Positions 1 to 63,661 of a stretch of 64,000 nt of DNA are shown one piece after another. The stretch covers positions 15,438,001-15,502,000 of the forward strand of contig CM114271.1 in assembly GCA_050084515.1 (NCBI GenBank), in the 5' to 3' direction. Position numbers and translations under genes: made by a program. Numbering within the stretch: position 1 is the first letter of the stretch; each line of letters opens with the position of its first letter. The notes under the pieces were generated by a model. The model saw only the letters and a list, made by a program, of their open reading frames with translations. It had not been told where the DNA came from and made no database searches. This DNA is from Blasia pusilla (Eukaryota).

Positions 1-417
1 GCATCCATTCGGGGTGGAGATTATCGACCATCGATTCATAGGTTCCATGTGGGGGACTATGTCTATTTGTAGCAGATTGCACCGAAAACATTGGATGTGA
101 CGGCAGACCGCACTATTTTATGAATGCGCAAGGTGTTAGCTTATGGAGTTCTCATGTTAGAGGGTCGTGATGGAGTTTTTTGGAAGGACCATGTGCATAA
201 TTGTGCGCCATGCCATCTTCCAAATGTGGATGGTATTGTTGACCCAAGCTTAGCCATGATACGTGCTAGCTTGAGGTGCATGTTGTGTGGATCTGCAAGT
301 AACGCAACCCGTATGTTGGTGTGTGATCGGTATTCTAGGGGTTGGCACATGATGTGTTTGACTCCACGTATGGATGTTGTTCCTATTGGAAGGGGGGTTT
401 GTCCTCGATGTACTTAG
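1..417 (+). pseudogene. Integrase C-terminal region plus PHD finger (degenerate)
   Basis: CMLCGSASNATRMLVCDRYSRGWHMMCLTPRMDVVPIGRGVCPRC matches C4HC3 PHD spacing with one Cys changed to Tyr. In-frame stops occur upstream. Confidence 0.85.
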
Positions 418-591
418 GAGAGGTAGATGACTTGATCTTTGCATGATATGGATTACAGATAGGTGACTAACGATGGGGCAACCTAGCACCTGGCCTTCTG
501 ATTCGTGCACCCAAGAAGGTGTATAGCATGTAGTAGATGTATAGGGCTACTTGGGAGTTAGAGGGACCTAACCGCCAGTTATGGGGGCGAG

Positions 592-696
592 TTGTGATAC
601 ACTTGTGTTTGTGGATGCTCTCGTCTATGTTATGTATGTATGTGAGTATGGTATGTCAGCGATGTATGTTGTATGACGATGTGGATTCGCACGACA
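592..696 (+). repeat. B1 repeat of copy 1
   Basis: 105 bp with 3 mismatches to 1067-1171. Ends ...TTCGCACGACA and is followed by TT and then TGTCATGACC. Confidence 0.9.
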
Positions 697-1066
697 TTTG
701 TCATGACCATACGGATTATGTCGTAGAGTTTAGTGTGCTAGTAGAGGCCATACCTTATGTAGGCCGTAGTGTCTAGGTAGAGATGCAGTTTCATACATAG
801 GGTTGGGGGTTACTCAGTTGAGGGTGACTTTTCTAGTAGGGCCCGCTCTTAGGTTGGAGGATATAGTGTGGAGTGCACTCAAAGAACAGTTAGTTCTTTG
901 AGTTGAGCCTGTTGCGTTGGGAGTTAGCCTTGGTAGTGAGTAGAGCTCTTGGCTATGGTGGTTCCCGTAAGCTTCGACCTGGATTCTCCCATCGTGGAGT
1001 GGGTTTGGCTCGATTGTACATGATTCTATATGTGTTTTATGACAGTAAGCCTTTCACGGATTTCAA

Positions 1067-1171
1067 TTGTGGTACACTTGTGTTTGTGTATGCTCTCGTC
1101 TATGTTATGTATGTATGTGAGTATGGTATGTCAGCAATGTATGTTGTATGACGATGTGGATTCGCACGACA
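1067..1171 (+). repeat. B2 repeat (3' terminus) of copy 1
   Basis: Direct repeat of 592-696, ending ...GCACGACA. Sequence switches to AT-rich host DNA after it. Confidence 0.9.
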
Positions 1172-4100
1172 TTCTTCCAAATGGAAAGCTCCAAAAATGA
1201 TTCAAAATAGGAGAAAGAATTTGATTGGAAAGGCCATTTATATTGTTATTTTTCTAAGTCTTAAGGAATTGAAAATACATTATAGATGCAGTGTAACTTT
1301 TTCCAATGTTAAAATTAGCCTTTCCCTTAAGATGTCATACATTCTCATCAAGACTTGCTCATAATTTGTTGGTTGTTTTAATTTTCTCCTCCTTTGTTTC
1401 TAGGATTATTTTGTTAATAAACCTAGTTGTCATGCATTGCACAAGCCATTAAACTGGTGTGTATGAATAGAGTTTATTTAATTATGGGGAAAATTGATTC
1501 ATAAGTCATATCTACCAAGAGCGGTTGTTAAATTTACAAAGTATGATTTATTACACATGCACACCTACTTATTTAGTAAATGTATTGTGCATGTGAAACA
1601 TATGTTATTATAATAATAAGGACAAGTCGTCTATACAAATACTTAGGAAGGGATCATTATGGAAATCAAACAAACTCATTTAGAAAGTGGCAAATTAGAA
1701 ATGACAAGTTTTTTTAAAGGCTTTTGTTCTACTTTTTTGTTGGCCCTTAGTAGGCTAGTATCCCCCCTACTTCGGCTTAAGTAACACGAAAGTGTAAATG
1801 AAATATTGGGCACATAGATTTTCTAGCAAGACCAATTTTCCTCCCATGAAATGCAAGCAATAATTTATTCTCTAAACTTTTTTTCAACTATTTTGCAAAT
1901 TTTACTAAGAAATTACTTTTTCCAACTCATTTCAAAAAATTCAAAATTTTCCAAAATCCTAAAATTTTGGCAACTAAGTTGCTTACACAAAAAACCGAAT
2001 GTTGGCACTCAATTGTATTTTCATAGAAGAACTTAACAATAGCTACATGACAAAATAGACCACCTTATGAGGAGATAGACACATAAATAAATTTTTTGAA
2101 GAGGGAATAAAGGGGACTAGAGAGGGTGAGAAATTTGTTTTCCCATAATTATGAGATGGGAGGAAAGGTTTCCCAATTAATGAAGACACTCATCCTATTC
2201 TCAGTTCCTTAATTAAAACAAGTAAGAAATAATTTGACATTTATCTATATTATTAACATAGGATGGGTTTAAAAAATCCCTCTGCCTCTTGTTGACACGT
2301 GTCTTTTGAAGAATACTCTTCTATTGACACGTATCTTTTTAAATGAAAGAAGTAAGTTAAAAAAAAAAAAACCTAAGCTAAGGGGAGAGTACAAGCTAGA
2401 AAAGAGGATGAAGAAAGAGCAGAAAACTGTTGCTACAAAGAAAATTACTAGTACCTTAAAAAAAAAAAAAAAGTGATAAGATTTCTTTGGCCCAACTAAT
2501 ATAACTGACATTTAATCATAAAAATGTGCCAAACCTTTTAATTATTTGTGAAAAGCTATGTAACCACCATCTTTACTCCATTCCGAATTATAAAAGCCCA
2601 TATTTCTCCACGCTTACGTTACTTTAGTCAGTCTCCCAAGTAAGCTTGCCTCTTTTTATTTGTCAACGTCAATTTTAGACGTTTGACCATGTAAAAGTCG
2701 AAAATCGCTAAATGTGGGGTTATCTATATTAGGCCCAAAGTGAAAGATGGAAAATAAACCCTCCACGTATTTTATAGGGATGGGGGCCGGACTGGACTTT
2801 AATTTCATTGGCTCTCTATATATGGTGCGGGAAAACAAATCAGCAAGAAGAAAGAAGAAGCGGATTTTCTTAACTAAACTAGTGAATTCGTACATGGAGA
2901 AATATTATGAAGATTTTATGAAGTGGATATACTATTATGAAGTGTCTAGTATTATTATTATGATGTCCCCATCCATCCCCGTCCACAAATAAATAAATCT
3001 TTTTTCTTTTTCATCCCATCCAGCGTCATTCTACCCACCTTGTACGAGTCATATTCTATCCATGTGCTACTGGATTTAAACCCTTTCATTTATTTCCATC
3101 CGACATGGTATTGGATTTTGTGAAGGGAAGCCACAATGTTTATTCCCCCTTTTTTTGTACACCACTTAATAAACACTTATACTCTTGAATGAAATCATTT
3201 TCGAACTTGTGAGGGGTGGCCACCGTTGCATGTCTATCATTTCACGTCTGAATTCTTTTCGAGACAAGAAAAATGAATAATACTTGTCATGGAAAGAAAA
3301 AAATGGAATAGTGAGCATGCCATGCAAGGGACTCACCTCCTTAGGTGGTAAAAATCAGCATCCTCCCCCCCTTGCCATATTTATGATCATCCCATGGGCA
3401 AAGATCACCTCTATGATGGGGCCACACCAAACCCTTGACTTAAAGGTTTTACATCTCTAGAGCCAAGGTAATCCAAGCATCTTTTCTAGGTGGAAAGAGC
3501 ATGGTGCCCACTCGAATGAACATGAGCTTCAGAACTAACCTATTCCTCGTTTTTTAAGGAGGAATAGGTGAACCCAATTTTTTATCATTCTCAGTTTTGC
3601 TAGAGGGGCAGCATCCTTTTTTATTTTAATTAATTAATTAATGTTTGGATATGGGTTTGGGTGCACCAGGTCGCCTAGGGCAGCATAAGAAAAACCCCCA
3701 CTATTAATATAGGGTCTAGTAAAGTCAGAACATCGGGCCATTATAGGGGGGCCCTACTATAGATACCAAATCTAATGCAATTTCCTCGAGATCTCATGGG
3801 CCCACCTCAAAGTTGTATCAGCCCCAAGATTCGTCTCGTTTTTCTCTTGTTTTTCCATCTAGTACACAACTGCGGTACAGAAAGGTAAAGGGGAAAAGAA
3901 AATTGGTTTTCAAGTGTACAAAACTATTGCAGGGGTTAAAAAAAATGAGAAATTCATTGACTTTGGACCACCCTATGTCTTAGAGTAAGATAGCGTACAA
4001 ATCTCCCACTGAAATTAATGATGGTCCTATGCATTCCGTTTTTTATTATAAATTAAATCAAAACTCCAGATACTCTCTAAGTTAATGGATAAATTCTTTT

Positions 4101-11086: not shown

Positions 11087-11176
<90 letters not shown>
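11087..11176. repeat. (CT)n(AT)n compound microsatellite
   Basis: Seen directly. Confidence 0.98.
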
Positions 11177-11323: not shown

Positions 11324-11970
11324 CAAGGTTGCATGGAAAAACAACTAGGGCGTCCATGGGATGCACATGCCCAACGGGTCCCTCGCACGGGTTTTTTTGA
11401 CACCCCAGTAGCCCGCATGGACTTAGGACGCGGAAACGAGTACATGCTCAAATTAGGGGAGGCGGACATGGATTGAATGGGTTTGGGAGCTATGAGCCCT
11501 CTCTTGGTGCACATTAAGCCCACACATAGCCCATCCTAAGCTCGCAATGGCTTGCACACAACTCACGGCCATACGCGCACAAAGCCTATAGGGCTAGCTT
11601 TCCGTGGGTTATCGCGGATTTAGGACAGGCTAACAAATTAGTGGCAAGAATGGGTGACAGATTCCTATACTTTGTGCTGGTTGATCGATTCCAAGTCTAC
11701 CATGGTTGCACAAAAAAATACAAGTCTATCCCATGGAGGGACAACTCTAGACATGTCCACGAACATGGATTGCAAGAGGTGGGGCTCACACTTATAATTC
11801 ATGATGGAAAGGAAGGAGGGAGTGGAGGTGGAGGTGGAGGGAGGAAGAAATCAAAAAGTATGGAACATGAAAGTAAGTGGGAGGTGGGGGATGAGAAAGA
11901 AGGTGAAGGTAGGGACCACATGGACAAGTCCTTCTATAGAACGGACGTTAGTTCACGGACATGGAAATCA
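11324..11970. mobile_element. Two adjacent degenerate copies of the CAAGGTTGCA/CATGGTTGCA hAT MITE family
   Basis: CAAGGTTGCATGG at 11324 with an interior similar to 5093-5467. CATGGTTGCACAAAA at 11701 with an interior similar to 63670-63997. Right ends are eroded. Confidence 0.6.
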
Positions 11971-14405: not shown

Positions 14406-14637
14406 CAAGGTTGCATGTGGACAAAGTCTATGTCCTCCCTATGGAAGGGCTTGTCCATGTGGGCCCCACCATCCCCTTCTTTATCGTTCCCTCCACCCCC
14501 CCCCCTCCTCTTTCATTGCCCCACTTGGCCTTACCCTACTTCCAGCATGAACTATAAGTATGGGCTCCACCTCTTATCATCCATGTCGGTGGACATATCC
14601 ATACTTGTCCATCCATGTCCATTTTTGTGCAACCATA
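14406..14637. mobile_element. hAT MITE family copy (opposite orientation to 63670-63997)
   Basis: Ends CAAGGTTGCATGTGGAC ... TTTTGTGCAACCATA. Flanks AGAGGGAG / ACAAGAAG match only partially. Confidence 0.7.
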
Positions 14638-14970
14638 ACAAGAAGTCAAGATGGGCGCTAGCCATGAGAGATATGAGACGTGGGTCCAAGCTCCAATATG
14701 CATTTGAGAAGCCGAGAGTTGCATAAGCTGCAAGAAACCTCCACCAGGCCATCTCAATGAATAACTTGTCAAATTTTGGTCCATAGAGCATGACTCGCGT
14801 TTGGGTATGAGGACCAAAATATAGGGTCAGAGGGAGACAATGGGGGAGGTAGGTTTCTCCTAGAGAACTCGAGAAGTACCTTGGGGGGGGAGGGGGGAGG
14901 GGGGGCGCGGGAACACTCTCTTCGTGCTCAAGACCTTGAACCAAGAACTAATCATGATGCGTATTTGGTT

Positions 14971-15081
14971 TGTCGTGCGCATATACATCGCTGTCACCGA
15001 ACACACACACAAACACGCACAATCCCATGCTAACTCATAGCATCCAAACAACGAGACGAGAAGGACCAAAATATCTCAAAT
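14971..15081 (-). repeat. B2 repeat (3' terminus of copy 2)
   Basis: 111 bp; matches 15600-15727 apart from a 17-bp deletion (ACACAACATATATTGTT) and a few substitutions. Confidence 0.9.
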
Positions 15082-15597
15082 TAAAATAAAGATCCAATCT
15101 CTCTCACAACACCATAGTTCTCACATGTGTGGACTCTCACATGTCTCTCTCAATGTCAAACCAAACCCACTCTCCTAATGAGAGGCTTGGATTACACTCA
15201 CAAGGCAAGGGACCATAGCTCCGCTGCCTCGTGCCAAGAGGTTCAACAAAGAGAGAATGAGCTCTCAAGCTCTCTCTCCTTGAGATATACCTTTCTCCTC
15301 CCCCGAGCTCTCTCCATGGTAACCTATGCTCCCAAATCACCTCCTTGGCTCTTAACTTGATATAGGAGATCAAGGTCCACTTACCATAAATATTAATCGA
15401 CCATATACTCAAAGTGGTACTTACCGAAAATAGCATGTTCCTCAATGTGGCTCCAAATGAGCCGAAACAAAGGGAAAACCTGCTCTCTCAGGTTTCATGG
15501 GGCCTCAACATGTCATCCTTGACCTCTTGAGCATGTCCTCCACTACTGGAGAAAGCGCTCTAGTAGATCTTACCGATCTATCCTAAAAGACGTGACA
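15082..15597 (-). repeat. A2 repeat of copy 2
   Basis: 516-bp direct repeat of 23980-24494, about 85-90% identical by eye. Begins TGTCAC on the minus strand. Confidence 0.92.
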
Positions 15598-15599
15598 AT

Positions 15600-15727
15600 T
15601 GTCGTGCGCATACACATCGCTACACAACATATATTGTTGTCACCAAACACACATACAAACACGCACGATCCCATGCTAACTCATGGCATCCAAACAACGA
15701 GACAAGAAGTACCAAAATATCTCCAAT
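15600..15727 (-). repeat. B1 repeat of copy 2
   Basis: 128 bp, ends ...GCGCACGACA on the minus strand and is separated from A2 by a 2-nt AT spacer. Confidence 0.9.
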
Positions 15728-15906
15728 CGCCCCCTAGCTGGTCGTTAGGTCCCTCTAACTCCAGATAGCCATCTATCCCTACATACCATGACATACATCT
15801 CTCGGATGCTAAGAGCAAGAAGGTTGGGTGCTCATGTGGCCGCATTGTTAGTCGCCTTCTTGTCATCCATGTCACAGACACAAGTCAGAATGCAGAACTA
15901 CCTACA

Positions 15907-18900
15907 CTATGTATATGTAGGACACATCCATTGTCCCTAAGGAACCCTAGTAAGAGGTGGTGTCAAACATGTCATATGCCATCCTCTGGAACATCCATCA
16001 CAGACTAGCATAGTGGCTGCACCACGGGTGGAACCACACAACATACACCGCAAGCCGGCAGAAACTATTGCTAAGCTCGGATCCAATATACCGTCAATGT
16101 TTGGAAGATGACATAGCGCCCAGTTACGCACATGGTCCTTCTAAACCATACCATCGCCTCCCTCCAATAAGAGAACACCAGATGGCAAAATCTCAAGCAC
16201 TTTCAAGATGGTCACCCTGCAGTCACATCCAAGGTCGTGGATGCCGTCTGCTCCAAGTAGACATAGTCTCCATGATGAAACCTGCGGATAGTAGTTTGAT
16301 AACCACCTCCCCGAATAGTCGCATACCTCAATGTATCTCGATGTTGCGCAATCGCCAAGTTCTCAAACGCCATGGGGATCACTCTCCGAAACAACCCAAC
16401 CCTCTGAGAACATGCTCGCATCCATATATCAGGGTCATCAAGGTTCAACACCTCACTAACATCTCGACGAATGGCCGTAGGTAAATTTGGCTCTCGGCCA
16501 TACAAAAGCAAGTACGGTGAGAAAGACGCTAAGGATGTCAGCGTGCTGAATCTGTATCCCATCGCCAACCACGGGAAAAGGAGGTCCCAATCTCCTAGGT
16601 GACCTCTCTACAAGCCATACTTGCATAGTCCTCTCTTCACCGTTTGCACAACCCGCTCCGCTAGTCCATCCATCTTAGGATGATCTCGCGAAGTAGTGTA
16701 GTGGTCGATCAGTGCCTGATCACACAAGGCCTAAAACGCCCCGCGGAACTTTGTACCCTGGTTTTTCAACACCTCAGATGGCACACCGTAATGACCCAAC
16801 ACCCGATCTAGGAAGGCATACGCTATTCCCTCACTCGCTTTGTCATAAAATGTAACCAACTCTATCCACTCTAAGAAGTGCTCGACCATCACCAACACAA
16901 AGCAACTATGGCGCACCGTCAAAGGCAAAGGTCATGCAAAATCCAAACTCCATCTATAATCTAAATCCATGATCAAAAGTGGATGCAAGTGTGGAGTCAG
17001 AGCATTGAATGATGCTCGGACTTGATTACACACCATGCATCTGGCAACAAACTGCTGAACGTCGATTTGCATGCCTCGCCACCAATACTGAATCTAGAGC
17101 AAGCTGTATATCCGCTTCACTCCAAAATGACTCAACTCCTCGTGGGCATGATGCACCAAATGTGCTCTCTGCAAAGGACGAGGCACTACACGCACTCTAC
17201 CATCCTCCTACACTCCCCATTCTCCATCAGACCTCGCCATCAAAGTCTCAGCAATCTGGCTCTCCATAGCCAACAAGCCCAAATAGGCTAACGCATGCCA
17301 TCCTGGCACCAACTCCTCATCACTCTCACCATGCCAACGAGCTCCAGTCAACGAGCTCCAGTCGCATCTCGCTGACTCGAGAATGGGTTACGAATCATCC
17401 TGGTTGAGCATCCCAAGTCTATGCACCACCTGGAAGTCATACTCCTGCAACAAAAGAGCCCATCTCGCAAGCTTCCCTGTAAGCTTGTCGGACTCCATCA
17501 ACCACTTAAGTGGCTTATGATTAGTAATGATGGTAAAGGGATTGCCGAATAGATAACATCTGAAATGTACAACAGCCCACATTGCAGCCAAGCACTCACC
17601 CTCATACGAGCTATACTTTTCCTCTGCAACGTTGTTCGAGCGACTAGCGTAAGCCACCATGAACTCTCTACCATCATCGTCAGGATGGGTGAGCACGGCT
17701 CGAAGCCCCAACATGCTCCAATTGGTATGCAACTGGAAAGGACGCCCCGTGATCGGTCTCCTCAATATGGGCGCGGAAATCAATATATCCCTGAGCATCT
17801 GAAATGCTCTCTTCTACTCATCCCCCCAGTGCCACTCCTGATCCACCTTGGTCGGCAAGGTCAACGGCTTTGCAATCGAGCTGAAACCCTTGACGTACCG
17901 TCGATAGAAGTTTGCCAATCCCATGAATGCACGAATTTGACTCACATTTGTAAGACGTGGAATGTGTGAAATAGGCTCTACCTTCGTCTGCTGCACACCA
18001 AGGCCACCTGGATATATCTTACGACCCAAGTACTCAATCTAGTCGTAGAAGAACTTGCACTTGCCTGGATGTAGCTTCAGCCCATGTAACTGAAATCGTT
18101 GAAACACCTCCTCCAGATATCGTTCATGCTCCTCAACCGTGGCGCTAAAGACTATGATGCCATCAATGTTACACCTAGGACAATCCAGACCTGCCAAGAT
18201 CCTATCCATGACCCTCTGAAACTCAGCCGGAGCGTTCTTTAACCCAAATGGTAAGAATCGCCACTGGTACAAGCAATCCTTCCCGTGAGGATCGATGCCC
18301 CAAAATACCATCTTCTGCCTATCCTCCAATCTGATAGGAAGTTCATGGTATTTGACTCGAAGATCTAACGAAGTGAAGACCTTTGCATGCCCAATAGCAT
18401 CAAAGATCTCCTCAGGAGTAGGCATGGCATACCTATCGGACTTTGTCTACCGATTGATGGGTCGGTAATCTCCACACGTCCGCCTATTCTTCCAATTGCC
18501 ATGCACATCCCTCTTGGTGGGCATGACAATGGCAAATGCATACTCTCCATGCGACATCTCCTCTAGTCCCGCTCCAACCAAGTGCTGGCTCCTACTCTGA
18601 ATCAGAGCCCTCTCCATGTTACTATACCTGTAGGGTTATCGGAAGATTGGCATGTTGCTCGAAAACTCAATGCTAATCCCTGGACCCTTCAGCGTACCCA
18701 AATCATGCATACTAAATGCAAAACAACTCCTATAACTCCTAAGGAACTGGTGTATCCGGCGTCACTCTCCTCTTGTCAACTTAGGGCCCATACGTGGCCC
18801 CCAAGTCTCCATCATGACTACGGTAGGACTCTCCGGCATGGGTGTTGATGGTTGCTATGGTGCAACCCCGTCTCAAACAACAAAACTCAACTGCTCCCCT

Positions 18901-21900
18901 AGAGCCAACTGCAAATTTGGATCTCCATATGCAGTACCCTGAACTACGCTTGATGCTGTGGCTACCATCTCCTGGCGTACCTGCAAAACATCCTAGTATA
19001 TCACCCGACAAGAGGTTGTGGTGAGGATTCGATCGAGACATCCTACCGATGAGTCTGTGGTGCGAGCCAAGGCGATAGTGACTCATGCAGAGTCCTACGA
19101 CATCTTGGTTGGTGAAGCAGTGTTATATCCGATAGAGTTTTTTGTGGATTACTGGGAGGAGTCAGCGTCCTCCAGACCAGGAAGGTAGTCAGGTGATGGG
19201 CGCCTTAGCTCATTACCCGTTCAATTCACAGGTGTAGTGATCGAGCGACGGCCAGGAGAGATGGTGACCTTAGCAACATTTAGCAGTGCCATCACTTGGC
19301 CTAGCGATTTGATTGAGGGACATGTTCATGCAGAGGATACTCTAGTTTCTGACATTTCTATGGAGAGGAGTGTCATGGTAGTCGTTTTGGGGCTCGACTG
19401 AGGAGCTTCGATGCTTAGCCACTGAGCATGTGCAAACCGCATGGAGCGAGACGTTTGCACCAGAGTGTGATGGGTTAGTGGAACCATAGATAGCCAGGAG
19501 TGGTGCTATGACCCCTTTGGACATCACCCCCGATTATGTGGTGCATCCTAGAGAAGGGTATTCGGGTGTTGGATCTCTTTGGAGGGATCAACACTAGGTT
19601 AGCTGATGTTTTGTAGGCTGGAGTGCGCCTGTAGCAGTACCTGTATGTGGAGATTGATGATGTTGCGAGGCACGCTTTACTTCACCATGTGGCACAATTA
19701 CACCTCTATTTTCCAGACTTTTTATCTGCGTCCGCCATTTTTGGTGGATTCTATATTGAATTCGGGCCGTACATCACAGGTAGTGAGGCTAGATGATTAA
19801 TCGCCGTTGACTGTGGTCAACGGGATTGGCATGCCACGGGCAACATTTCCCACATTGGTGAGTTTTTCCGCTTCCTATGAATTCAAGGAGGCCGAACCTG
19901 GCTTGGTTTGGGATGACCAGGTACTAAGGTTGGTGGAGCCCAACGCCGATGAGCGAGAGTGAGCGATGGGATTCCCCATAGGAGTGGCGACATAACTGTC
20001 ACTATCAGAGGCATCACAACATCGTGTCTTGGGTTAGGCGATGGACCTGAACTCGACACACCAAGGATGATCATGATAGAAATCTTTGGACTTCTGTGTG
20101 GTACTTGCTCCATCCAAGGATGTATGTATCCGGAATGGACAACGCTCCACATTGGCTCTCGTTAAGACCAATCCTTTGAATGACGCTTTCCCCAACATCA
20201 GGGGTTACGCTCCTGAATCCAATAAGACACATTGCGGACTAAAAGCTCTACCTCATGGACTCACCACCTGGAAGACCTCTCCCCAATTATCTAGCAACAC
20301 AACACCAGGAGAAGCCATGGCACGCTTTATCGCAGGTCTGGCCGGCATCTCCGCCATCCTAGCAGCCGTAGACTGCCATGAATCTGGCTCGAGCATACGC
20401 TCCAATGGTAGGTCCATCGCCTCCTTTGCAATCACATGTGAACGTGATGCAAGAACTCCAACTCCACGCTCACATAGCATAGCAGCCAGCCGGAAAACCT
20501 CGACGGGCATACCTCCCAACGTCATAACATTGGAAGCAGTACGGAGCGGAGCACGGTACACCATCGTGGCCGCCCCCAATATCATACTCGATCCATGCTC
20601 CTCCTGAGCATCAGCAATAGGAGTCATCCCACTTGCTTCTCCCATCGCCCTTTGTGCTTGCATACTAATAACATCACCAACTCTCCGGAAACTCTGATCA
20701 TGACCCATTGATGGGGTCCTCATCGCCGTAGACAACGTGAAAGACAGAGGAAGCGTGGTCTGTTTCCTGGCTTCCCCTCATTGTGGATCCAACTCTGCGG
20801 CTGCTCCACGTGTTACAACTGCGGCGACCTCCATTTGGGCAACCCCGCACATCCAACCAGGATCCTCCATATCTCTGGTTGCTCCATATGATGTTGATGC
20901 CACGAATCCGGCATCGAGTAACCTCAATGCCATAGCGGCAATCTGCTCCTGTAGCTATTGTATCTGAGCAGCCATCCTAGCCTCACGCCCGGCATCTCCC
21001 TTGACGCGTCTAGGTGGTGGGACTCTACCTCCTCCACGGGAAATTCCACCATCCTGTCGGGGAACTCCAGCTCCTCGTCCCCCAACAGGACCACCTGGTG
21101 CACAATCTCTAGCCCACCCGGACCGACTACTCGCTCTGGTGCCATCTCTGGACCTCGTTCTGGACATAACTCAGGGTGTAAATTGAAATACCTGGCGCGT
21201 GTGTGACCATATCTTTGACAATAGTCACACTGATAACCTCCTAATGCAGCACCATCTCCTCCTCCACGCTGAGGCACACGTCCATGACCCTGATGAGTGC
21301 AATCATGTTGATGATGGGCTCCACCACATGACCAACAAGTAATCATAGGCGGTTGCTGCTGAGCCGCATATGAAGTCTATGTGGCACGACCTCCCGGTAT
21401 CCTCCCTCACCTCGTGGTGCCATAGTCAACCTATCTCGGAGTCCACGTTGTTGCACTCGTGGTGCAGACAATCGTGACTGCTCTCGCCCAGAACCCATGG
21501 TGGCTACACTCTCCTCCGCCATGTTGCACTCACTATTCTTGGCGGTCCTAAAAACATCTCTCAACGTAGGGGAGGTGTTCAAAAGAAGCACCCCCTCCCG
21601 CACCCGTGTCCGCAGGGTCTGGTCCAACATCGCGTACCATGATTGGATAGCCTGAGCCTCTAATCTTTGAGTGACGTTGATCAACCGGCGCAAGCGAGTG
21701 TCAACCTCACACAAACTCTCACCCAAGCGCCTCTGGAAGTCATGGATGCTCCGCAACTTCTTTGTCCGTACCCCCTAGTAGCTCGCCCTCAACTCATCGG
21801 AGAACTCAACCAAGGGGTTGAATATGGGACGAACCCGACTGGATAGTGCAACTACTCCAGTGCGAGTGACCCCTCCTAAAACATCACTAGTGAAAGAAGA

Positions 21901-22200
21901 AGTGGCCTCTCTTGACTCCTCCTCCTCATCTGGGAACGGCTCCATCCATGACAAATAGTGTGGGTCATAGTAGAGTCGCCATGCCTCAATCTCCTGGGCA
22001 TATATGTGGGAGAACTCATGATAATCGTCTATGGACGCCCCCTCTAAATGCTGGAACATATAGTTCCATGTTGTAAACGGGTTGAACTCTCTAGAGTTCC
22101 TAGCCTGTTGTGAGTCACACCAACTCCTAAACTCCACAATGAAGTCGTGAAGCTCTATAGTGCCTATAGCACCTGAAAACCTACACGGTCCTCTACCCTA
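15907..22200 (-). pseudogene. gag-pol polyprotein pseudogene of copy 2 (many stops and frameshifts, internal inversion 18997-20093)
   Basis: ORF-track fragments join into one collinear polyprotein ending ...RVP*GQWMCPTYT* (stop at 15909-15907). The start is not resolved. Confidence 0.9.
19557..20056 (+). pseudogene. Cytosine-5 DNA methyltransferase domain inside copy 2 (inverted segment, central motifs deleted)
   Basis: GIRVLDLFGGINTRLADVL*AGVRL*QYLYVEIDDVAR gives motifs I-II (DLFGG at 19572-19586). After a frame jump near 19740 it reads FPTLVSF...EPNADERE*AMGFP (motif IX, 19951-19977) and RVLG*AMDLN (motif X, about 20023-20052). Confidence 0.85.
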
Positions 22201-23979
22201 GTCGTCCATCTCGTATGCCCAACTGGTAGGACCACTCAATATGTATGGTGGATCACTAACACACTCCTCTATATGCTCCCCCTTGTCGAAAGAAAACATA
22301 GAAGGAGATCGAGGTGGTCTCTCATGTGGAGATCCTCAAAACCTCCCACCATTCCGAGTAAACCCTCCAGAGCTACTCTCAGGTCCACTACCTCGCCTCT
22401 CAAAATCCCTAAAGGACGTTGTGATGGCCCTTGTGCCCCTCTCACACGATCACTCTTAATCTTGCAAGTAATCCCTCAATCACTAAAACTAAACATGCGC
22501 ACTCAATCTACACTCTCTCACTAAGACGTGTAATGTGCGGCAACAAGCATCGTGGTGTGGCAAATCAACTGATCTATCGTCTCATCGACAAACCATCCTC
22601 AACTCTGGACATCCCACAAGGGTCTATGTCCCCTAAACCCATATATCATGGATGCTCTCAGCATCAACACGAAACCCAATATCCCAAATAACTTCCCAAT
22701 ACCCAAAAATCCCTCACACATGCAGGATAAGAGACCTGAATGGATAACCTGACAATAATCTCGATGTCGCTCTATGGCAACTGCAAATCTCGACCCCAAC
22801 TCGATCGTGAAGAAAACTCCTCCAATCAGCAAGTCGTACTTCGCTCGTACTGACGCTGCTCAAACCTCCTCGATGTGTGGTGCAGGTCGAGCGATCCGGT
22901 GGCATGGCACTCGGGATTGGGATGCGGCACTTGGCGGCATACCCTCCTCAATAAAAAATTCACACGCTCTTTTCCTTAGTGAAGGAGTGGCTCCACGATC
23001 GAGACGGTGCAGTGCGGCCATAAGCGGCACGGCCCGGCAATGGGCAATGCGTTGCGGCTACGGGCGTCATGGCACGGTACTCAATCGCTGTCGAGCAGCT
23101 ACCAATCACAACATAGTAGCATGTTATGAAAACTCATGCTACTATAGCCCGAGGTCACCTGACATCACATGTTGATGACAAAACTGCGATGATGGTGGCG
23201 GCCAAAACAAAGTATGTGGTGGCGGTGCAAGTCAAAGAATCAACGGTCGTCGTAGAAGACCCTCCACTCTATAATGGCAGAAATGGAAACCAAGGGTGGA
23301 CAACGGTCGAACGCGGCTCTGAGAAGCGCCATGCGGGGGTGGCAACCAACGATGGACGATGGACGGTGGACGGTGAACCGTTGACGGTGGCTATGACGGT
23401 GACTGCCACCGCCGACGCGGCGGCAGGTTTAGGGTTTGAACAATTTAACCCTAAAAATCGCCTATCAATGGAAAATTTTCAAGATTAACCATAACTTTTT
23501 GTTCGCAACTCCAAACTCCGCATTGTCTATTGCACAGCCTGCACAACTTCATGATCTACGACGACGTTAAAAATATTTTGAATCAAACATTCCAGTAAAA
23601 ATTGAGAGGGATTGTCGTAAAGCCAAATGTCTCTTTCTCCTACACAAAATTCGACAACACTTCCGCTCTGATTTCTCCCAACGAAAATATAAAACCTATA
23701 AGAACACAAATCAGCAAGCTACATGGTGCTCCCAAGAGCACTGGCATGGAGCAATCGACCCCCATACTCAATTCCTATCAAAAATTGGGCAGCGCTTCCG
23801 CGTGCCACTCTCCCGTAAAAAAAATCAGCAAAGCAAAACAACAGACCCCCACGTCTCTTGCTCCGATGAGCACTCCCATGAGCCATGAAGTGGGGAACAC
23901 GGTCCCCCAACTTGCACCAAACATCAAGAAACCAGCGAGCTTCCCCATGAAGCTCTCTCACTCACTCATTCTCTCTTTG

Positions 23980-24494
23980 TAAAATAAAGATCCAATCTCT
24001 CTCACAACACCATAGTTCTCACATGTGTGCACGCTCACATGTGTCTCTCAATGTCAAACCAAATCCACTCTCCTAATGAGAGGCTTGGGTTACACTCACA
24101 AGGCAAGGGACCATAGCTCCACCGCCTCGTGCCAAGAGGTTCAACAAGAGAGAATGAGCCCTCAAACTCTCTCTCCTTGAGGTATACGCCTCCCCTCCCC
24201 CAAGCTCTCTTCATGGTAACCTATGCTCCCAAGTCACCTCCTTGGCTCTTGATCTGATGTAGGAGGTCAAAGTCCACTTACTAAAAATATAAAGGCGACC
24301 ATATACTCAAAATAGTACTTACCTAAAATAGTAAGTTCCTCAATATGGCTCTAAATGAGCCGAAACGAAGGGGAAACTTGCTCTCTCGGATTCCCAGGGC
24401 CTGAACGGGTCATCCTCGATATCCTGATCATGTTCTCCACTACTCGAGAAGGCGCTCTACTAGATCTCACCAATCTATTCTAAAAGATGTGACA
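23980..24494 (-). repeat. A1 repeat (5' terminus of copy 2)
   Basis: 515-bp direct repeat of 15082-15597. Starts TGTCACAT on the minus strand and is not followed by a B copy. Confidence 0.92.
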
Positions 24495-24767
24495 GGTCGT
24501 ATTTCATGTTTGAGCTAACAACATGTACCTTAAGGAATTAATCAGCACGCTCTGATTTAGGCAAGCAACTTGGGAAGATTGATCAAGGCTTGAGGAAGAG
24601 GCTTCTTAGGGAGACGGTATGCACTTGGGGAGACTCAACCTAATTAGCACTTGCTGACTTCTATGCTATCTATTGAATGTGAAACCAATTGAGCCTTTGG
24701 AACTCAATCTAAGTCTTTGGCTTACAAAAATCAAGGTTGGGAGTGCTTCGAGGTAAAGTAGAGGATG

Positions 24768-24769
<2 letters not shown>

Positions 24770-24837
<68 letters not shown>
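24770..24837. repeat. (CT)n microsatellite
   Basis: Seen directly. Confidence 0.98.
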
Positions 24838-25199: not shown

Positions 25200-28100
25200 G
25201 TATTTTCCATGTATATATATATATATATCGCTACATAATCCATATCACTAATCATATCTATACAACACACAACACCGATCTTCCTAACAGACGGATTGAT
25301 CCAAACATACAAAAGAATGCACTCATGCAAGCACACCAAGACCACGCAACAAAAAAAAAAGAAAAAAAAACCCGTCCAACTCGCAATATCAGCATATACT
25401 CTTGCTCGGTGTGTTGTGAATTTAGTGGAGGAGACCAAGTAGTGATTAGAGCTTCCACGCTTAGAGAGAGAGTTTGTACTTCAGGTGGTCCATCCAATGC
25501 CTTGTGATGTTCTTTCAGATTTGAACTCTTCATCATACCATCTATTAAACCTGATTGGGATCCCCTCGGGGAATCCTAGAAGACATTACTTACTAGTACA
25601 GCATCTTTGGGCAATCAATCCAGGGTATTGAATACGTTGAAGAATTTTGGTGTGACCAGCTTGGCTATATCAGCATATGCTCTTGCTCTATGTGTTTTGA
25701 ATTTTGTGCATCAAACCAAGTAGTGACCAAGGCACAAGAGTATAGTTGAGTTCCATCCTGGTTTACTTATGGTTCAAGGGGATACAAGCCGTCCTAAGCA
25801 AGGGCTTTCCACAAAATGTTTCTTCAATTTTTCTTGTTGTGGATTTACCCTCAAGAGAGTGAGATCATACATTTTCATGCCTTACTCCATGTTTTTCTGT
25901 TGTGATCATTTTCCCACTACTTTGGTAATGGTATCCAAAAAATCCTTTCTCATCCACCGTTCGCCTTGAGGAATTTCAGACTCTAACATCTAAGCTCCTA
26001 CCAAAACCTAGCAAGAGTGGTGCTCCAAAGGCTCAATATGAGAGAGACGGCTTGAGAAAACCATCTTTCCCTCCCTTATATCCTTGGAAAGAGGCAAAAT
26101 TCTCATCCCCTAGAAATAGCCCTCTCAATAGTAACTTGCACATAGATGTTACCAGATGACTCTTGACTTGGTCCACACGTAGCCTCACCTAAAATAGTAA
26201 AAGAGGGGAATTTTTCTAAACAACATTCTCGTCATAACAGAGTTGTTATTATATGCTCAAATCATTTGCTAACCCTCTACATTTTTTATATGGCATAACT
26301 CTACATGTCGAGTAACTAAGATATGAAAAATAGCGTGCACATACATGTGTCTACATAACCCACATTGCTAGTCACATCTACGCAACCCTGATATTCCCTA
26401 CATATAGGTATGATACCTCAGAGAGCATGTAACACATGTGCCCAACATGATCTGCTATCTTATACACATCCAACAACATGAGAGCTATCATATATGCAAC
26501 ATCTTCAAACACATGCTCCCCCTCTAATCCATCTTATCTATTTCAACCTAGAGATACCAATATGTCAGTATGTTGGCTTGTAACACTACAACTAATTCTG
26601 ATGTTGATCCCTCGGAAGAAATCTAACACTCTCATGCCCTCCTCTAGACATTGCCACACAATAAGTGTGGTATCCAAAGATATTATGTCTCCATTCTATG
26701 AGCATGATCCTCACCTAACTCTATATGCTCTAGGAAAAAGGCGCGACTTAATGCGTGCCTCATGAACTCGTATGTATTCCTCTAAAAGTCAATGCTTGTC
26801 CACACAATGGTGAAGATGTCTCCGCATCATGTGAAGAGATACCCATTATGGCATGTCTCTCAATGGGATTATCTGCTATTGGGATGTCCTCTTCATGTAC
26901 GCTCCCCTCTAATAACGCTCTTGTCCTGCTAACTATATCCCTGAATGTTGCCAATATAGTCAGAACATCACCTTGTGGATCACTGCTACGCCCTACGAAT
27001 CGCATAAGTAAATGGCTTACTTGTCCATCACCTAATCGCCATCATGATCTTGGTTGATAAAAAATCATCTCTTCACAAAAAATAAGGATGAAACCAAAGG
27101 GGTTCAACATCGTACTCCTTGCCAACACATCATACAACTTTGCTTATGTTGTAATCGCAAGATTGCGCACCATCTGAAGCATGCTTTGGCTAGAATCTAA
27201 CAACTAGCTCTTGTTGAGTCATGTTTTTCAGGGATGATACGACCCTGAAAAACATCGTATCATCCCTGAAAAACATGTTACGATGTTTTTCAGGGATGAT
27301 ACGATGAAAAACATCGTATCATCCCCAATGTTGCCTTTCCATAACCCCAATGCCAAACATGCAGCCTTCCCTAACTTCAAGGTTGTGCTCTTGAAGTTAG
27401 GGAAGTAGGATGTGCATCGAATGATATACCATACATATGGGACTAACCAAGCATAACATCCCACTCCAATTGTCCAAAAATACCATACTTGGTATCACCA
27501 TGGTTTGCTCTTTCGTTGGTCTAGCTGGCGTATCTGCCAACTTGGATGTTGCAACCTTCCATGATTCAATGCAGCGAGTCCCAAGAACCTACCATGAGGA
27601 TAGTTCCACCACCTCCTAAGAAACTACCTCTGAATGAAAGTTAGAAACCTCTTTACACTCACACACTGTGGCGGCCAACTCGAACACCTCTGATGGTCCA
27701 ACTCCCATTTTATCAAGTTCATGGCAGAAAATAATGGAGCATGGCTCACCCAGGTGGCCATCTTCAATAATGTAATCGATACTAATTCCAACCGAGTATG
27801 AATAGGAGTTCCCTCTCCAACTCCTCATGACATCGACATACCCATACCACTTGTGGGCACAAAAAGTTGCCTAAGCACCACTGATGGTGTATGAAGTGCC
27901 TTTGATAACGTGGAAGACTATAGAATCCTAGCATATCGCCCATCGATCAATCTCCTCTTGTGGGTCTTTCTCAATTCCACCTCTCTATGGATCGATCACT
28001 TTTGAAGCACCCCGAGTCAGATCAACATCAACCTCTACCTTAGATGCATTGCACATTAATCTCAAGCCAGTTTACTCCTCCCACATATTCTGATACAATA

Positions 28101-29330
28101 TATAGAGGGCGGGGCTAAAGTGGTTACTCTCGACTGCGTGTCCATCATTGGCTATGTCATACTCACGGCAACAATCCTATGCTTCAATGATCAATGTGAG
28201 CGAGGAGCATTGCATCTTGTGCACATCCTCCATTTCCTCTAATAGGTGGTGGAATTCTATCACCGCGGTCAGAAACTCCTCGACTTCCACCAACTTGTTG
28301 CCCTCATCCTACCTTTGGATATATCTTCGACAAAGCTCATAACATCTATTCCTTGTGTGACCATATCTATGGCAATGATCACATTGTGACTATGGTGGAG
28401 CATCCGAGGTGGCTCCTAAAAAATATAAGACAAGCTCGACCCTCTACCATACTTTAGGCAATCCCTTTGCATGTGGATTCCACCAAAAATCCAACACATC
28501 AAACTTGCTCCTTGCCAACCAACATAGGTCTGCTCGGGTTGTTGCCTCATAGGCTCACGATATCCACTCTCCTTACTAGGCACATCGACTCGCTCTCGTG
28601 CCATTGATGCACTTGTGGGTACTTGTGGAGCTACTAGCACTTGTGGATATGTCAACTCTCGAGGGAGTTGCATGGTCATAATATGCTGCTCCCTCATCTT
28701 GAGCTCAAGATGCTCAAAAAATTCGAAGACCATCTTCAATGTGGGCTTCATTGTGTGAAGCAACATCACATCTCAAACTCTTCTCCATAGCTCTCAATCC
28801 AAAACCACATAAGAATATAGAATTATGTGTGCCCTAATCACTCAATGAGTGGTAATGATCAGTCATCATATGCGCATGAACGCCTCTCATAGGCTCTCAT
28901 CATATCTCCACTGAAATTCTTGTAAACTCTTAAGCTTATTATTTTGCATGCCCTAGTAGTTCATCCCTGACTCTCGAAACAACTCCATTGTAGGATTTAA
29001 ATTAGATGGCCCTCTATACCACCTCATCGCCATCACTCCCATCATCTCCATCTAGTCCATGGATTGATGATGTGGATCTAAGCTCCCTCACTACCCCATT
29101 ACGTGCCTTACAACCACTATTGGACACATATCTTGGAGCCCCATACACCCTCAATCATTGATCTCTATGATGTAGAAAGTTCAAAACTCACGAGAATCAT
29201 CCATTAGAGGTCCCTCTAAACATTGGAGCAAACTTTTCCTGACATGTGGGGGTTAAAGTATGTAGGGGCTTAAATCTCTTGGTATTTACACCATATGTCT
29301 AAATCCTAGATGAATTCATCTAGAATATAT
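25200..29330 (-). mobile_element. Heavily decayed, internally deleted relative (copy 3): gag, protease, DNMT N-terminus; RT/RH/INT not recognised
   Basis: Gag QCLEGPLMDDSREF (about 29230), knuckles CWIFGGIHMQRDC and QCDHCHRYGHTR (about 28500-28350), VFLDNWSG (about 27480), LYDVL (about 27135), then EEGMRVLDFFRGIN (about 26644-26603) and YL*VEID. Boundaries are approximate. Confidence 0.75.
27220..27325. repeat. Nested inverted/direct micro-repeat cluster
   Basis: ATGTTTTTCAGGGATGATACGA and its reverse complement (T)CGTATCATCCCTGAAAAACAT alternate in about 5 full or partial copies. Confidence 0.9.

Positions 29331-32941: not shown

Positions 32942-33007
<66 letters not shown>
32942..33007. 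repeat. (AG)n microsatellite in the ethylene-receptor upstream/leader region
   Basis: Seen directly; a shorter (AG)n lies at about 32111-32139. Confidence 0.98.
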
Positions 33008-33009: not shown

Positions 33010-34735
33010 GCTACAGCGGTTCCGATGGTCCACATCACGGGGAGAAGTTCGGAGATTTCGACGAGGGTTAGTTTCCCAGCTGAGTCTCGAGACGAAGTGG
33101 TGTGATAGCTGTTGTCGCAATTGAGGCGGAATATAGTGGAGCGATCGATGGACAGGCTTTACGAAGGACTGGAAGGCGATTGGCGAAGTCAATTCGCTAG
33201 GAAGGGAACTGACGCTGTCCTAGAGTCGGATATGCGAGGACTCAAGATCAAAGCGCTCGCGCTTGCTCTCCGTCCTTGCAACTCTAATCTTAGAGTACAA
33301 AGCGTAGGGCTCTGGGCACGCGCTGGTTAGGTAGAAAGGATAGGACACAATATCTGCCGCACTTATTTTCGTCCCTACCTTGTATTTTTGGTCTGCACTG
33401 ACATCATGCCCCGTGGTTATCCAGCTTAAAAACGAGGGCTTTTAGGATTCTTCCATACGAGAAGGTGACGGGGAGGCATTTGAGCTGGGTTTGTTCGTTC
33501 GCAAAGTGGATAGTATCGTGTTTGTGTCTCAGACTTCAAACCATCTCTAACATCGGGAGCTGATCATGCCTGTGGGAACCTCATGGTATTAGCCCTCAGC
33601 AGTCATTCTGGTAGTGATGATCCCCGGATTGAGGGTGGCCTATGCCATCACCTAATCTACACTCCATCCAACCTTCGATCTGCCATAGATTGTGTCCTGT
33701 CAGCGTTCTTGAATTCTGTGTTGTTCCAGTTCAACCATTACCTCATCTCCTCGTCCCTCTCCATTCTCGGATTACTCTTACCCTTTGAATAGCCCAGCCA
33801 GTGAATTCGTATGGTGATGGGTTTCCTCCTGAAGTGGTAGTCGAGTAGTACGTAACTGTTGTACTGTTACTATCTTCTGTTAGGAAATGTTGAGAGGCAA
33901 GTACTAGGATTCTATCTCGTAAACGTGCAGCTGTACCTGTTGTTTCATCACGACTACTGCTTCTACTGGGTTGCAAGCTGACACGGTATAAAATGGTTGA
34001 AGGTTTTGGCTGGAGCATAAACTGGCGCCGAGTCCCGAATTTGGAGAATGTAGCATTTTTCGTTTCTCCAGTTTTTGTACGGGAGGTGAAATGGTGGAAG
34101 AAAGTCTGCACATCAACAATGGTTACTTTGCAAGACTTGGGGAGGCCATCATTGCCTTGAACAGATGGAAGTGTCAGAATGACTCTGAAGATCGCTGAAA
34201 GACAATGTAAGCCTTGCATATTTCAATTACTTGACGCACTTGATATTCAGCGAAAACATAACATTTGTTGTTCCGGGAACGAGATTTCTTGGTCGGATGT
34301 AGGCATCCTGTACTGGGGAGTTTTGTCTTTTTTTCTGGTGTGTCTTGGTCTGTAGTTTGCAAGGTCCAACGTTTCCTACCCCGTTGTGCCCAAGAGTATG
34401 AATGAATTTAGGGCTGTGAGTGGCAATCATCTGAGCCCAAGATGGGCATTTCATCACGAACCTGTCTTTTTGGATGTCTTTTGTGATGGGCCGGGTTTGC
34501 ATGGTGGTTGATATCTGTAACTTTTATGAGACAATTTGGATTAGATCTGAAAGTAAAATAATCTTCAGGGAACTATCAAGGGTAATAGAAGCTACTATTC
34601 AAGTCACGAGTCTTGGAAAGGAGAGGTTTGGGTTGTGGCTAAGCACTGCAATTGCTTTGTTCTTATACAGGTGACCCTTTCATCTGCGCGTATTTCAGAA
34701 GTTAAGGCCTTGCGCTCTTCAGAAGATTCGCCCCA

Positions 34736-42001: not shown

Positions 42002-42166
<165 letters not shown>

Positions 42167-61450: not shown

Positions 61451-61699
61451 ATGTTTTTGCACCTTAAATTTCATCATCCTTTTCATCTAGGTGTGATCAA
61501 TTGTGTATATCGAGAGTCCATTGATGCAAAGGGTATCCACATTCTTCAATGTGCATAACACTCTTAATGTGTGAAGAACCCGGGATGGTGGTGGTGGTGG
61601 TGGATGATGTGACATAATCACCACCTTGGTAGCATTCATGAATAGTGTTAGCCGGCTTGAAGAGTTTTTGGAGGAGAACACCCATACAAATGACATGCC

Positions 61700-62440
61700 G
61701 ATAACTTATAGTCCCATGGAGAGACATGCCATGATGGATGTTTCTTCCCATGGTACAGACTACTACGGAGACATCTACATCATTGTGGGGGTATGAGCGT
61801 TGACTTGCAAAGGAATTCATATGAGTTCATGAGGTAGGCTTGAAGCCATGTCTTTATTTTGGAGTGGAACAAGAGGTTTGACAATCGTGCTCTTAGAGTG
61901 GAGATGTTGACATCCTAGGATATCACATACGTTGTGTGGTAGTGTCTTGAGGAGGGTGCAAGAGTACTAGATCTCTTTGGAGGGATCAACACGGAGTTAC
62001 TGGTGGTGTTACATGCCGACATACATGTGCAACAATATCTTTATGTTGAGAGAGATGAGATTGTACGCCACGTCTCGTTACACCTTATGGCGAGGTTGAT
62101 CCATTCATATCATGAGTTGTTGTCAACATATGTATTATGAGGGTACCAACATACACTACTAGCTGATATTTCATTAATATAGGGATCTCACGACGTGGAT
62201 ACAGTTTGGATTTTTGGATGGCCATGTCAAGGTCATTCATCAACTGGCCAAGCTGTTGGATTGTAGAATCTGAGGTCAAGGATGTTTTTGGGAGATACTA
62301 TGAGTACTACAACACTTGCAAGAGAGCCATACATACTCTTTGGCCTATATTTTGAAGAATGTGTCATTGTTGGAAGACACTTGTACACAGATGATGACGA
62401 GTGTGTATTGATAAGGGCATTGTTAGGACTTGCTGTGTTT
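61700..62440 (+). pseudogene. Fragment of the gypsy family (copy 4): linker plus cytosine-5 DNA methyltransferase motifs I-VI
   Basis: EEGARVLDLFGGINT (DLFGG at 61970-61984), QYLYVERD, ADI, IFGWPCQGHSSTG (GWPCQG at 62216-62233), RSRMF and AYILKNV (YILKNV at 62346-62363). GATCTCTTTGGAGGGATCAACAC is identical to 19572-19594. Confidence 0.88.
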
Positions 62441-62516
62441 TAGATGTTCCCTCAAAAGTGATTTTCATCAATCTAATCCTCTTGAACTCTAAGAGCCCTA
62501 ACATAGCAAACCTATG

Positions 62517-63661
62517 CTCAAGGGTCTCACTTCCACAAATATGCCCCATCACGTGTGATAAAGTAAGGGGTTTTTTAATTGCGTCCCTTGGAAGACTTAT
62601 TAAGTTTTGTGGAAGAACAAGAGGGTTCAATTTATTCCATGACGTGCTTAAACGAACAATGGGATCTTTATATTAATTGCCCTTCCATGGAAGACGTTCA
62701 CATAAGATAGGGTAAATACTCACAATATATATATATATAAAATACATATTTGTCACATAAAATTTCTTTATATTTGTTTCAAATTTAATTTTATATAATA
62801 ATTTTTCTCCCTAGGTACAAAATTCTTTGATTCTTTTCAGGGAAATTTAGAGGGAAAATGATAGTTTTTTTTAAAATGGTTTTCCTCCCTTCACCATTTT
62901 CCCACAAACAAACTTGAACCGGGTTTCTCCAAAACCAAAACCCGGTTCAAGTTTGTTTGAATCTACAACAGACGTTGGCCCTTCCACAAGATCAATAAAG
63001 TCAAAGAAAAGGAAGGAAAAGAGACACAACTTACAGTGGAGACAAGAGTTGCAAAAAAGGAGTATTGGTTGGGGCGTATTGTGTATATGACTCAAAAGAA
63101 CGGTACACATTGGTCAAGACTTCGTAAGACCTTAGACTTGATGGGCGTGCATGTACCTCCTCTTGGACAAAAGGGAAGCATTTTTTGTGTCATGTGTAAA
63201 TGATACAAGTCTTCTGACCATGGTAACAACAAAGCCTTATTCACTTATGATGCAATAGATGTGCAATGGATTGATATTGAAATGGTGATTTCTAATGTGA
63301 ACTTGACAATGAAATCAGGGATATAAGATATAATATATATACTTTATTCAATTGACTTACATGCTTTGACTATATACACTCAAAATGTGAGTTGATCTTG
63401 GTGCATTTTTTTTATGGTTGAGACATGTTGGATTTAGTATTTTTGTTGGATTGTGGTTAGAATGTACTTGACACCGTTAAATTGTGGGAGAAAGTAAGCT
63501 AGGGGGATGACAAATTGGCTGATTGAGCTTCTTGCACTCGAGGGTCTCACTTCCACAAATATACCCCATTAAGTGCAACAAAGTAAAGGGTTTTTTAATT
63601 ACGTCCCTCGGAAGACTTATTAAGTTTTGTGAAAGAACAATAGGGTTCAATTTATTCCATG
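62517..63661 (+). repeat. About 125-bp direct repeat pair (62517-62641 and 63537-63661)
   Basis: AGGGTCTCACTTCCACAAATA...GGAAGACTTATTAAGTTTTGTG...GGGTTCAATTTATTCCATG occurs twice, 1020 bp apart. Confidence 0.85.

Follow-up and report, generated by a model that had tools for sequence, protein, structure and literature searches.

The closest described systems are retrotransposons that encode their own cytosine-5 DNA methyltransferase (DNMT). According to the available passages of de Mendoza et al. (2018; PMC5890265), SymbioDIRS-Dnmt3 of Symbiodinium carries a DNMT3-type domain in Pol and belongs to the DNMT elements for which the repeat arrangement "A-coding region-B-A-B" was described, KnitGypsy-Dnmt3 of Klebsormidium nitens combines Gypsy-type domains with the same repeat structure, and the DNMT capture in Klebsormidium was read as lineage-specific. 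A 2025 paper, in the part available, names only "streptophytes and dinoflagellates" for such elements. In this study, we analyzed a stretch of 64,000 nucleotides from Blasia pusilla (assembly GCA_050084515.1, contig CM114271.1, positions 15,438,001 to 15,502,000, forward strand), hereafter the window, which holds one long retrotransposon, element 1 (14969-24494, minus strand), and parts of three further copies (copies 2, 3 and 4). We consider it highly probable that element 1 is an old, dead copy of a Gypsy-type retrotransposon with a DNMT3-type cytosine-5 methyltransferase between protease and reverse transcriptase (RT), a PHD finger at the integrase terminus and A-coding-B-A-B repeats, and that it represents the KnitGypsy-Dnmt3 lineage in a liverwort host.

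Element 1 shares with KnitGypsy-Dnmt3 a Gypsy-type Pol, a non-rearranged DNMT3-type domain within Pol, the A-coding-B-A-B arrangement and an RT clade that includes K. nitens, whereas the host of KnitGypsy-Dnmt3 is a charophyte alga and that of element 1 a liverwort, hence an embryophyte, in which this copy is dead. The relatives of element 1 show two layouts, with the DNMT before RT (as in element 1) or after RNase H, and KnitGypsy-Dnmt3 was compared with them by its description and its RT. SymbioDIRS-Dnmt3, in spite of its similar DNMT and repeats, has a tyrosine recombinase and a DIRS-type RT, while element 1 has the zinc domain of a DDE-type integrase and a Ty3/gypsy RT-RNase H; correspondingly, no match to the tyrosine recombinase family PF00589 was obtained, and Integrase_H2C2 was found in the window and the rve core in the relatives. 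Chromoviruses resemble element 1 in having a chromatin reader fused to the integrase C-terminus, and a targeting role of this module in element 1 would follow by an analogy cited in PMC6673714, but element 1 has no chromodomain (PF00385) match and carries a PHD finger (PF00628) instead. PHD fingers on retrotransposons were described as already widespread in the same passages (2019; PMC6673714).

The order gag-CCHC-protease-[DNMT]-RT-RNase H-integrase-PHD in element 1 was obtained from Pfam searches of its three minus frames, with stops read as X, together with collinear tblastn matches of Marchantia polymorpha protein models (Table 1), and it bears out the domain order proposed in an earlier, sequence-only reading of this DNA. 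RVT_1, RT_RNaseH and Integrase_H2C2 share one minus frame and the PHD finger lies in another. Residues 60-979 of protein P0006 form a single collinear tblastn segment (18818-16215, minus strand) that covers RT, RNase H and integrase, and the PHD region, located by tblastn to Marchantia models at 16209-15919 (minus strand), comes last in order. The PF00628 search suggested in the earlier reading returned the PHD match given in Table 1. Pfam detected the rve integrase core in the relatives only and not in the window.

The segment between protease and RT contains a DNMT remnant homologous to the intact DNMT domains of the relatives. All six relatives that were rescanned exceeded the PF00145 gathering cut-off of 22 bits (28.8-44.8 bits), and in P0039 and P0042 a single open reading frame (ORF) runs from protease through DNMT, RT, RNase H and integrase to PHD, a frame that is broken in element 1. 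A hidden Markov model (HMM) trained on the DNMT segments that 53 natural relatives carry matched element 1 in two parts (Table 1) and copy 4 at 61934-62290 (profile positions 4-130, E 1.2e-25) and 62283-62393 (E 6.8e-5). The Marchantia model P0011 aligned to element 1 at 19557-19745 and 19693-20055, the latter with 51% identity (E 2.5e-28), and to copy 4 at 61955-62287 (E 7e-23). Judged from these alignments, the DNMT motif matches in the window lie far above chance. The motifs quoted in the sequence-only reading were indeed found on the plus strand, namely VLDLFGGI (19566-19589), YLYVEID (19638-19658), ERE*AMGFP (19951-19977) and VLG*AMD (20026-20046), and the order I, II, (IV, VI), IX, X in the window and in P0011 is non-rearranged. 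Copy 4, as had also been claimed, holds the catalytic GWPCQG (62216-62233); an ENV-like motif is present there too, its true equivalent being YILKNV (62346-62363) in a second frame, past a frameshift. For copy 3, where the domain had been placed at about 26640 on the minus strand, a motif-I stretch of 27 residues was recovered (26671-26591, E 0.001), and the HMM gave no match.

Several results weigh against this interpretation of element 1 and are considered together here. When C5-METHYLTRANSFERASE was tested directly, no single frame of the window matched PF00145; Pfam searches of the three plus frames of 18997-20166 and of four shorter pieces, with X at stops, returned no family at E up to 10; and phmmer with the best frame of copy 4 (193 residues) found no match in the PDB at E up to 10. 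As the window's own translation has neither a PF00145 nor a PDB match, the DNMT assignment of its segment is therefore transitive, by sequence homology through intact intermediates. The sequence-only reading had named two outcomes that would speak against a DNMT, a segment free of PF00145 matches and a one-off insertion out of frame with gag-pol. The first is literally what the raw frames gave, while the relatives pass the cut-off and the window matches their profile; the second did not hold, with the domain lying inside single ORFs of the relatives. Furthermore, element 1 has lost profile positions 73-215 and with them motifs IV-VIII and the catalytic Cys, and no target-site duplication, primer-binding site or polypurine tract was recognizable at element 1 (ends 14969 and 24494). 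The transcription evidence given below concerns relatives and not element 1. The support values of the RT trees are SH-like only, without bootstraps, and the K. nitens RT rows (P0040 and P0051) are short models that do not reach a DNMT, their link to the published KnitGypsy-Dnmt3 being by species and clade only.

Comparison with solved enzymes shows that the domain is DNMT3-like. A profile of six liverwort-type proteins matched DNMT3A (1.3e-16, 63 bits), DNMT3C (2.3e-15) and DNMT3B (1.2e-14), followed by M.HaeIII as the best match outside DNMT3 (9.7e-9, 37 bits), tobacco DRM (7.7e-7, 31 bits) and M.HhaI (1.4e-5, 27 bits). With this profile, the tRNA enzyme DNMT2 scored far below the de novo DNA methyltransferases and DNMT1 was not among the matches; a query with a single relative ranked the enzymes in the same way. 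The host enzymes DNMT3A, DNMT3B and DNMT3C thus resemble the retrotransposon domain in profile match and in motif order I to X, whereas the retrotransposon domain has no PWWP or ADD, is embedded in a polyprotein and reads GQAMD in motif X, compared with GRSWS in DNMT3A.

Together with the RT tree, the A-coding-B-A-B repeats are the strongest link to the published Klebsormidium family, and on these two points, a shared layout and a shared RT clade, the relationship to Klebsormidium elements proposed in the earlier reading was supported. In its own orientation, element 1 reads A1, coding region, B1, A2 and B2, the alignment of B2 having been extended to the edge of the A repeat by eye, and the order B-A-B was found at all three 3' ends in the window (element 1, copies 2 and 4). 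B2 lies outside A2, which accounts for the start coordinate of 14971 in the earlier reading. RT-RNase H trees were computed with FastTree (125 rows) and in IQ-TREE quick mode with a mixture model (49 rows). One RT clade (support 100) held all DNMT-bearing rows, the window, Marchantia, Calypogeia, two RTs of K. nitens and one of Closterium. In the FastTree tree, the DNMT precedes RT in 11 of the DNMT-bearing rows of this clade and follows RNase H in 28, the latter layout forming one sub-clade (support 100), and none of the 10 rows that were covered on both sides and DNMT-free fell in the clade; many rows were too short to be scored for a DNMT. No DNMT-bearing sequence of K. nitens was among the matches of the RT-RNase H and Marchantia DNMT-region searches, and only its RT was placed.

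The land-plant host proposed earlier was confirmed and could be narrowed to a liverwort by an ethylene-receptor exon in the window (34706-35863), for which identity was 91% with Riccia sorocarpa, 84% with Calypogeia fissa and 73-74% with a moss. The closest proteins to the RT-RNase H query of element 1 also come from liverworts (C. fissa, 71% identity; M. polymorpha, 69%), and many matches to this query carry PF00145. A Marchantia DNMT-region query returned 40 proteins, including at least 17 M. polymorpha models, one from C. fissa (75%) and one from Sphagnum fallax (48%); on this evidence, the DNMT family is present in liverworts and a moss. According to the sequence-only reading, no such family is known to have been characterized in an embryophyte nuclear genome. 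We likewise found no report that liverworts, mosses or any other embryophytes have DNMT-bearing retrotransposons in the open full-text literature (supplements and non-open journals were outside the scope), nor in the available passages of PMC11982613, PMC9516144, PMC12344493 and PMC6673714, and no paper in the open full-text literature names any of the six Marchantia gene identifiers searched; the sequences themselves, on the other hand, are already public as "hypothetical proteins" of M. polymorpha, C. fissa and S. fallax. The lineage of element 1 is accordingly a previously unreported host range of a known kind of element and not a new kind.

DNMT-encoding retrotransposons were known from dinoflagellates and one charophyte alga. 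With the family abundant and transcribed in one liverwort, and present in Marchantia, Calypogeia and Sphagnum, this range now includes land plants, and it becomes plausible that the lineage is of old, streptophyte-wide origin. Marchantia offers a genetically tractable system for the role of a transposon-encoded DNMT, and models of retrotransposon DNMTs can inflate DNMT gene counts in bryophyte annotations. A far-reaching scenario can be drawn from this, in which a DNMT3 entered a Gypsy lineage by a single capture that predates or roughly coincides with the rise of land plants, and was later moved within the polyprotein (before RT or after RNase H), while the lineage persisted across streptophytes and survives as an active, high-copy, transcribed liverwort family, including Marchantia, whose catalytically active DNMT methylates the cDNA or insertion sites of the element and so gives land-plant epigenomes a de novo methyltransferase encoded by a transposon; taken as a whole, we give this scenario a low probability.

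As to function, we tentatively propose, following the argument of the 2018 paper, that intact members produce the DNMT within Gag-Pol and that it would methylate either the newly made cDNA of the element or the DNA at the integration site; this is a possibility on which we would not yet insist. The best PDB matches of the PHD finger were DPF3 PHD2, KAT6A, KDM5B PHD1, ATXR5, AIRE, UHRF1 and PHF21A. These proteins read the histone H3 tail with unmethylated K4. The PHD finger, resembling such readers, may tether the integration complex to chromatin, and a role in the choice of integration sites is plausible by analogy with chromoviruses. The sequence-only reading had suggested that the element encodes a writer and a reader and may methylate its own cDNA or site; DNMT and PHD are both present, but this copy is dead, and a writer function would apply to intact members.

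The mechanism is weakened by the only published activity test of a Klebsormidium Gypsy DNMT, in which the KnitGypsy-Dnmt3 domain gave no methylation in yeast, a result judged inconclusive by its authors because human DNMT3B was likewise negative. That negative test would also suit a genuine family domain that is no longer a DNA methyltransferase and either methylates RNA or has no more than a structural or nucleic-acid-binding role in the polyprotein, and so would the Pro of motif IV, which is kept in only 36 of the 53 relatives and is replaced in P0042 (GWECQ). We regard such a loss of function as unlikely, if deserving serious consideration, since most or all of the 53 relatives retain the catalytic Cys (50 of them), the ENV residues E and N (all 53) and the AHR arginine (51, as for the second Gly of motif I), since the closest solved enzymes are de novo DNA methyltransferases, with DNMT2 far lower, and since human DNMT3B failed in the same assay.

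Any methylation by intact members is to be distinguished from the state of element 1, which is a dead fossil and itself methylates nothing. Its mapped coding blocks contain 25 in-frame stops, and residues 145-274 of P0011 have no counterpart in it by tblastn. Element 1, owing to the deletion, lacks the conserved catalytic residues of a DNMT, and copy 4 has stops and a frameshift; the loss is a matter of decay of this copy and not of the design of the family.

The family at large was assessed with four read runs of the same species, mapped on 17500-21500 at a likeness of at least 90%, with about 1% of the whole-genome shotgun (WGS) run used. The WGS run gave 14194 reads at 90% or above, of which 13265 were at 90-95% and 83 at 99% or above, from which the family can be put, as a rough estimate, at some hundred copy-equivalents that differ from element 1 by no more than 10%. 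In the RNA run 472 reads mapped, none of them to element 1 at 99% or above. First mates of the RNA reads lay on the plus strand outside the inverted block described below (e.g., 38.8 vs. 0.66) and on the minus strand inside it (e.g., 32.6 vs. 6.5), a flip to be expected, by the usual library convention, if the transcripts are sense and come from collinear relatives. A gap of 1071 nt within RT-RNase H (17615-18687) is bridged by seven RNA reads and by none of the DNA reads; its ends are not GT..AG on either strand, and it could reflect a deleted family member or template switching.

The inverted block was delimited by tblastn, since protease residues of P0009 and P0125 match 20222-20103 (minus strand), the next residues match 19000-19347 (plus strand) and RT resumes at 18818 (minus strand); this strand switch upholds the inversion proposed earlier at 18997-20093, now set at 18997-20096. 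A joint between 18993-18997 and 20094-20097, on opposite strands, is present in hundreds of WGS reads and in a few RNA reads, and therefore other copies in the species are collinear; where reads break off at 18993 and 18995, their loose ends look like the far breakpoint in reverse complement. The inversion is either private to this copy or an assembly error, and the read data do not separate the two. If it were an artefact of assembly rather than a feature of the locus, the collinear joint in hundreds of reads would be explained, and no listed contig spans the stretch; but these reads could all stem from other copies, most WGS reads being only 90-95% alike, and read depth does not drop at the breakpoints, which leaves an artefact unlikely.

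The target of the methyltransferase proposed for intact members may also be host chromatin, around insertions or genome-wide, so that the element would dampen its own expression or disturb host silencing. Only general considerations speak for such action, and the available passages of the 2018 paper (PMC5890265) discuss accidental activity of retrotransposon Dnmt3 on the host genome. The present data do not separate host action from self-methylation of cDNA; the CpG observed/expected ratio of element 1 (0.69) is not below that of the flanks (0.51) or the host gene (0.42), showing no special CpG depletion by this measure, and we consider an action on the host quite improbable. A one-off capture or nesting of a host DNMT3 gene fragment or unrelated DNA in this copy, perhaps through the inversion event, could be suspected from a segment whose strand is opposite to that of the remaining element 1 and which has no Pfam match, but it is extremely improbable and was ruled out by the inverted block, which also holds the C-terminal/linker part of the protease and, once un-inverted, runs collinearly into RT by tblastn, by two other diverged window copies with the same region after protease or linker, by the HMM matches in window copies, by the single ORFs of the relatives and by the reads from collinear copies of the same species.

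Table 1. Positions of the features of element 1 (in its own 5' to 3' order) and of copies 2, 3 and 4 in the window.
Feature	Position	Strand	Basis or remark
Element 1: repeat A1 (5' "LTR", long terminal repeat)	23978..24494	-	self-comparison
Element 1: gag with CCHC knuckle	22194-21113	-	tblastn, Marchantia polymorpha P0125 residues 9-371
Element 1: protease region	20103..21056	-	tblastn, Marchantia P0125 residues 361-676
Element 1: protease active-site motif LDSGA	20222-20208	-	motif search
Element 1: inverted block, protease C-terminal/linker part (19000-19347) and DNMT remnant	18997..20096	+	tblastn order and strand, read joints
Element 1: P0125 plus-strand matches	residues 682-799 at 19000-19347; 863-942 at 19503-19745; 1073-1189 at 19693-20055	+	tblastn
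Element 1: DNMT N-terminal part, motifs I-II, 2 stops	19533..19742	+	HMM positions 3-72, E 3.8e-17
Element 1: DNMT C-terminal part, target-recognition domain (TRD) and motifs IX-X, 4 stops	19720..20055	+	HMM positions 216-327, E 1.6e-33
Element 1: reverse transcriptase	18018..18476	-	Pfam PF00078, E 1.6e-20
Element 1: RT YxDD box, reads NIDG	18170-18159	-	motif search
Element 1: RNase H	17439..17744	-	Pfam PF17917, E 4.9e-31
Element 1: integrase	16215..17387	-	within collinear P0006 match
Element 1: integrase H2C2 zinc domain	~17171-17013	-	Pfam PF17921, E 2.9e-13
Element 1: PHD finger at integrase C-terminus, internal stops	15919..16047	-	Pfam PF00628, E 6.6e-9
Element 1: repeat B1, inner short split repeat	15598..15727	-	self-comparison
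Element 1: repeat A2 (3' "LTR")	15080..15597	-	88.4% identity over 517 nt to 23980-24494
Element 1: repeat B2, outer short split repeat, 3' end	14969..15079	-	90% identity to 15629-15727
Copy 2, cut by window start	1..1173	+	integrase end and PHD 1-414; tblastn
Copy 2: repeats	B1 592-698, A2 699-1066, B2 1067-1173	+	B1/B2 97% identical
Copy 3, 5' part only: gag, protease, linker, motif-I trace	26531..29270	-	tblastn
Copy 4, internally deleted: linker, DNMT motifs I-VI (61934-62393)	61617..63661	+	HMM, tblastn
Copy 4: repeats	B1 62517-62641, A2 62642-63536, B2 63537-63661	+	B1/B2 90% identical

Copies 3 and 4 are 69% identical at the DNA level, and the terminal repeats of copy 4 start directly after its DNMT remnant. 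The 7-mer CGTATTT occurs at 14960-14966 and 24498-24504, 2-3 nt outside the two ends of element 1, with GGT beside each end; this pair is not a standard target-site duplication. A further repeat was found at 14406-14620 (minus strand), 11701-11946 (plus strand) and 63670-63941 (plus strand), with 69-81% identity between its copies. In copy 4 it follows B2 directly; in element 1 it has the same relative orientation and is separated from B2 by about 340 nt on the downstream side. It could belong to the element or be a repeat that the insertions share as a target.

Some related Gypsy polyproteins carry other enzymes. In P0058, P0060, P0065, P0068, P0072 and P0076, a Dam-like N6-adenine methyltransferase (PF05869) replaces the C5-DNMT, and these polyproteins adjoin the DNMT clade in the second tree, which included five of the six (P0068 was only in the first tree). 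A dUTPase was found in P0088 and a deoxynucleoside kinase domain in P0096. Polyproteins with the DNMT after RNase H (P0056, P0061, P0074, P0075, P0070, P0143, P0064 and P0059) share a further conserved stretch, several hundred residues long, downstream of the PHD. Metagenomes scanned with P0019 gave no match, and a scan with an alignment of eight type-B polyproteins gave 80 loci, 35 of them with a DNMT; terminal repeats were present in none of the 15 long metagenome loci examined. Ten metagenome contigs of 9-16 kb (L003-L007, L010, L011, L019, L030 and L042) carry intact DNMT-bearing polyprotein genes, and the several kb flanking each gene on both sides show no terminal direct repeats.

Elsewhere in the window, the host ethylene-receptor gene occupies 34706-37801 (plus strand), and its first long exon shows ETR1_N and GAF features. 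ORF pieces at 46526-47083 and 49189-49521 (plus strand) resemble starch synthase; we take their KTGGL-type motif to be that of starch synthase, and they are presumably parts of a host gene with introns. Dinucleotide microsatellite tracts (period 2), which the ORF track reads as ERERER, lie at 11087-11162, 24770-24837, 32942-33007 and 42005-42166.

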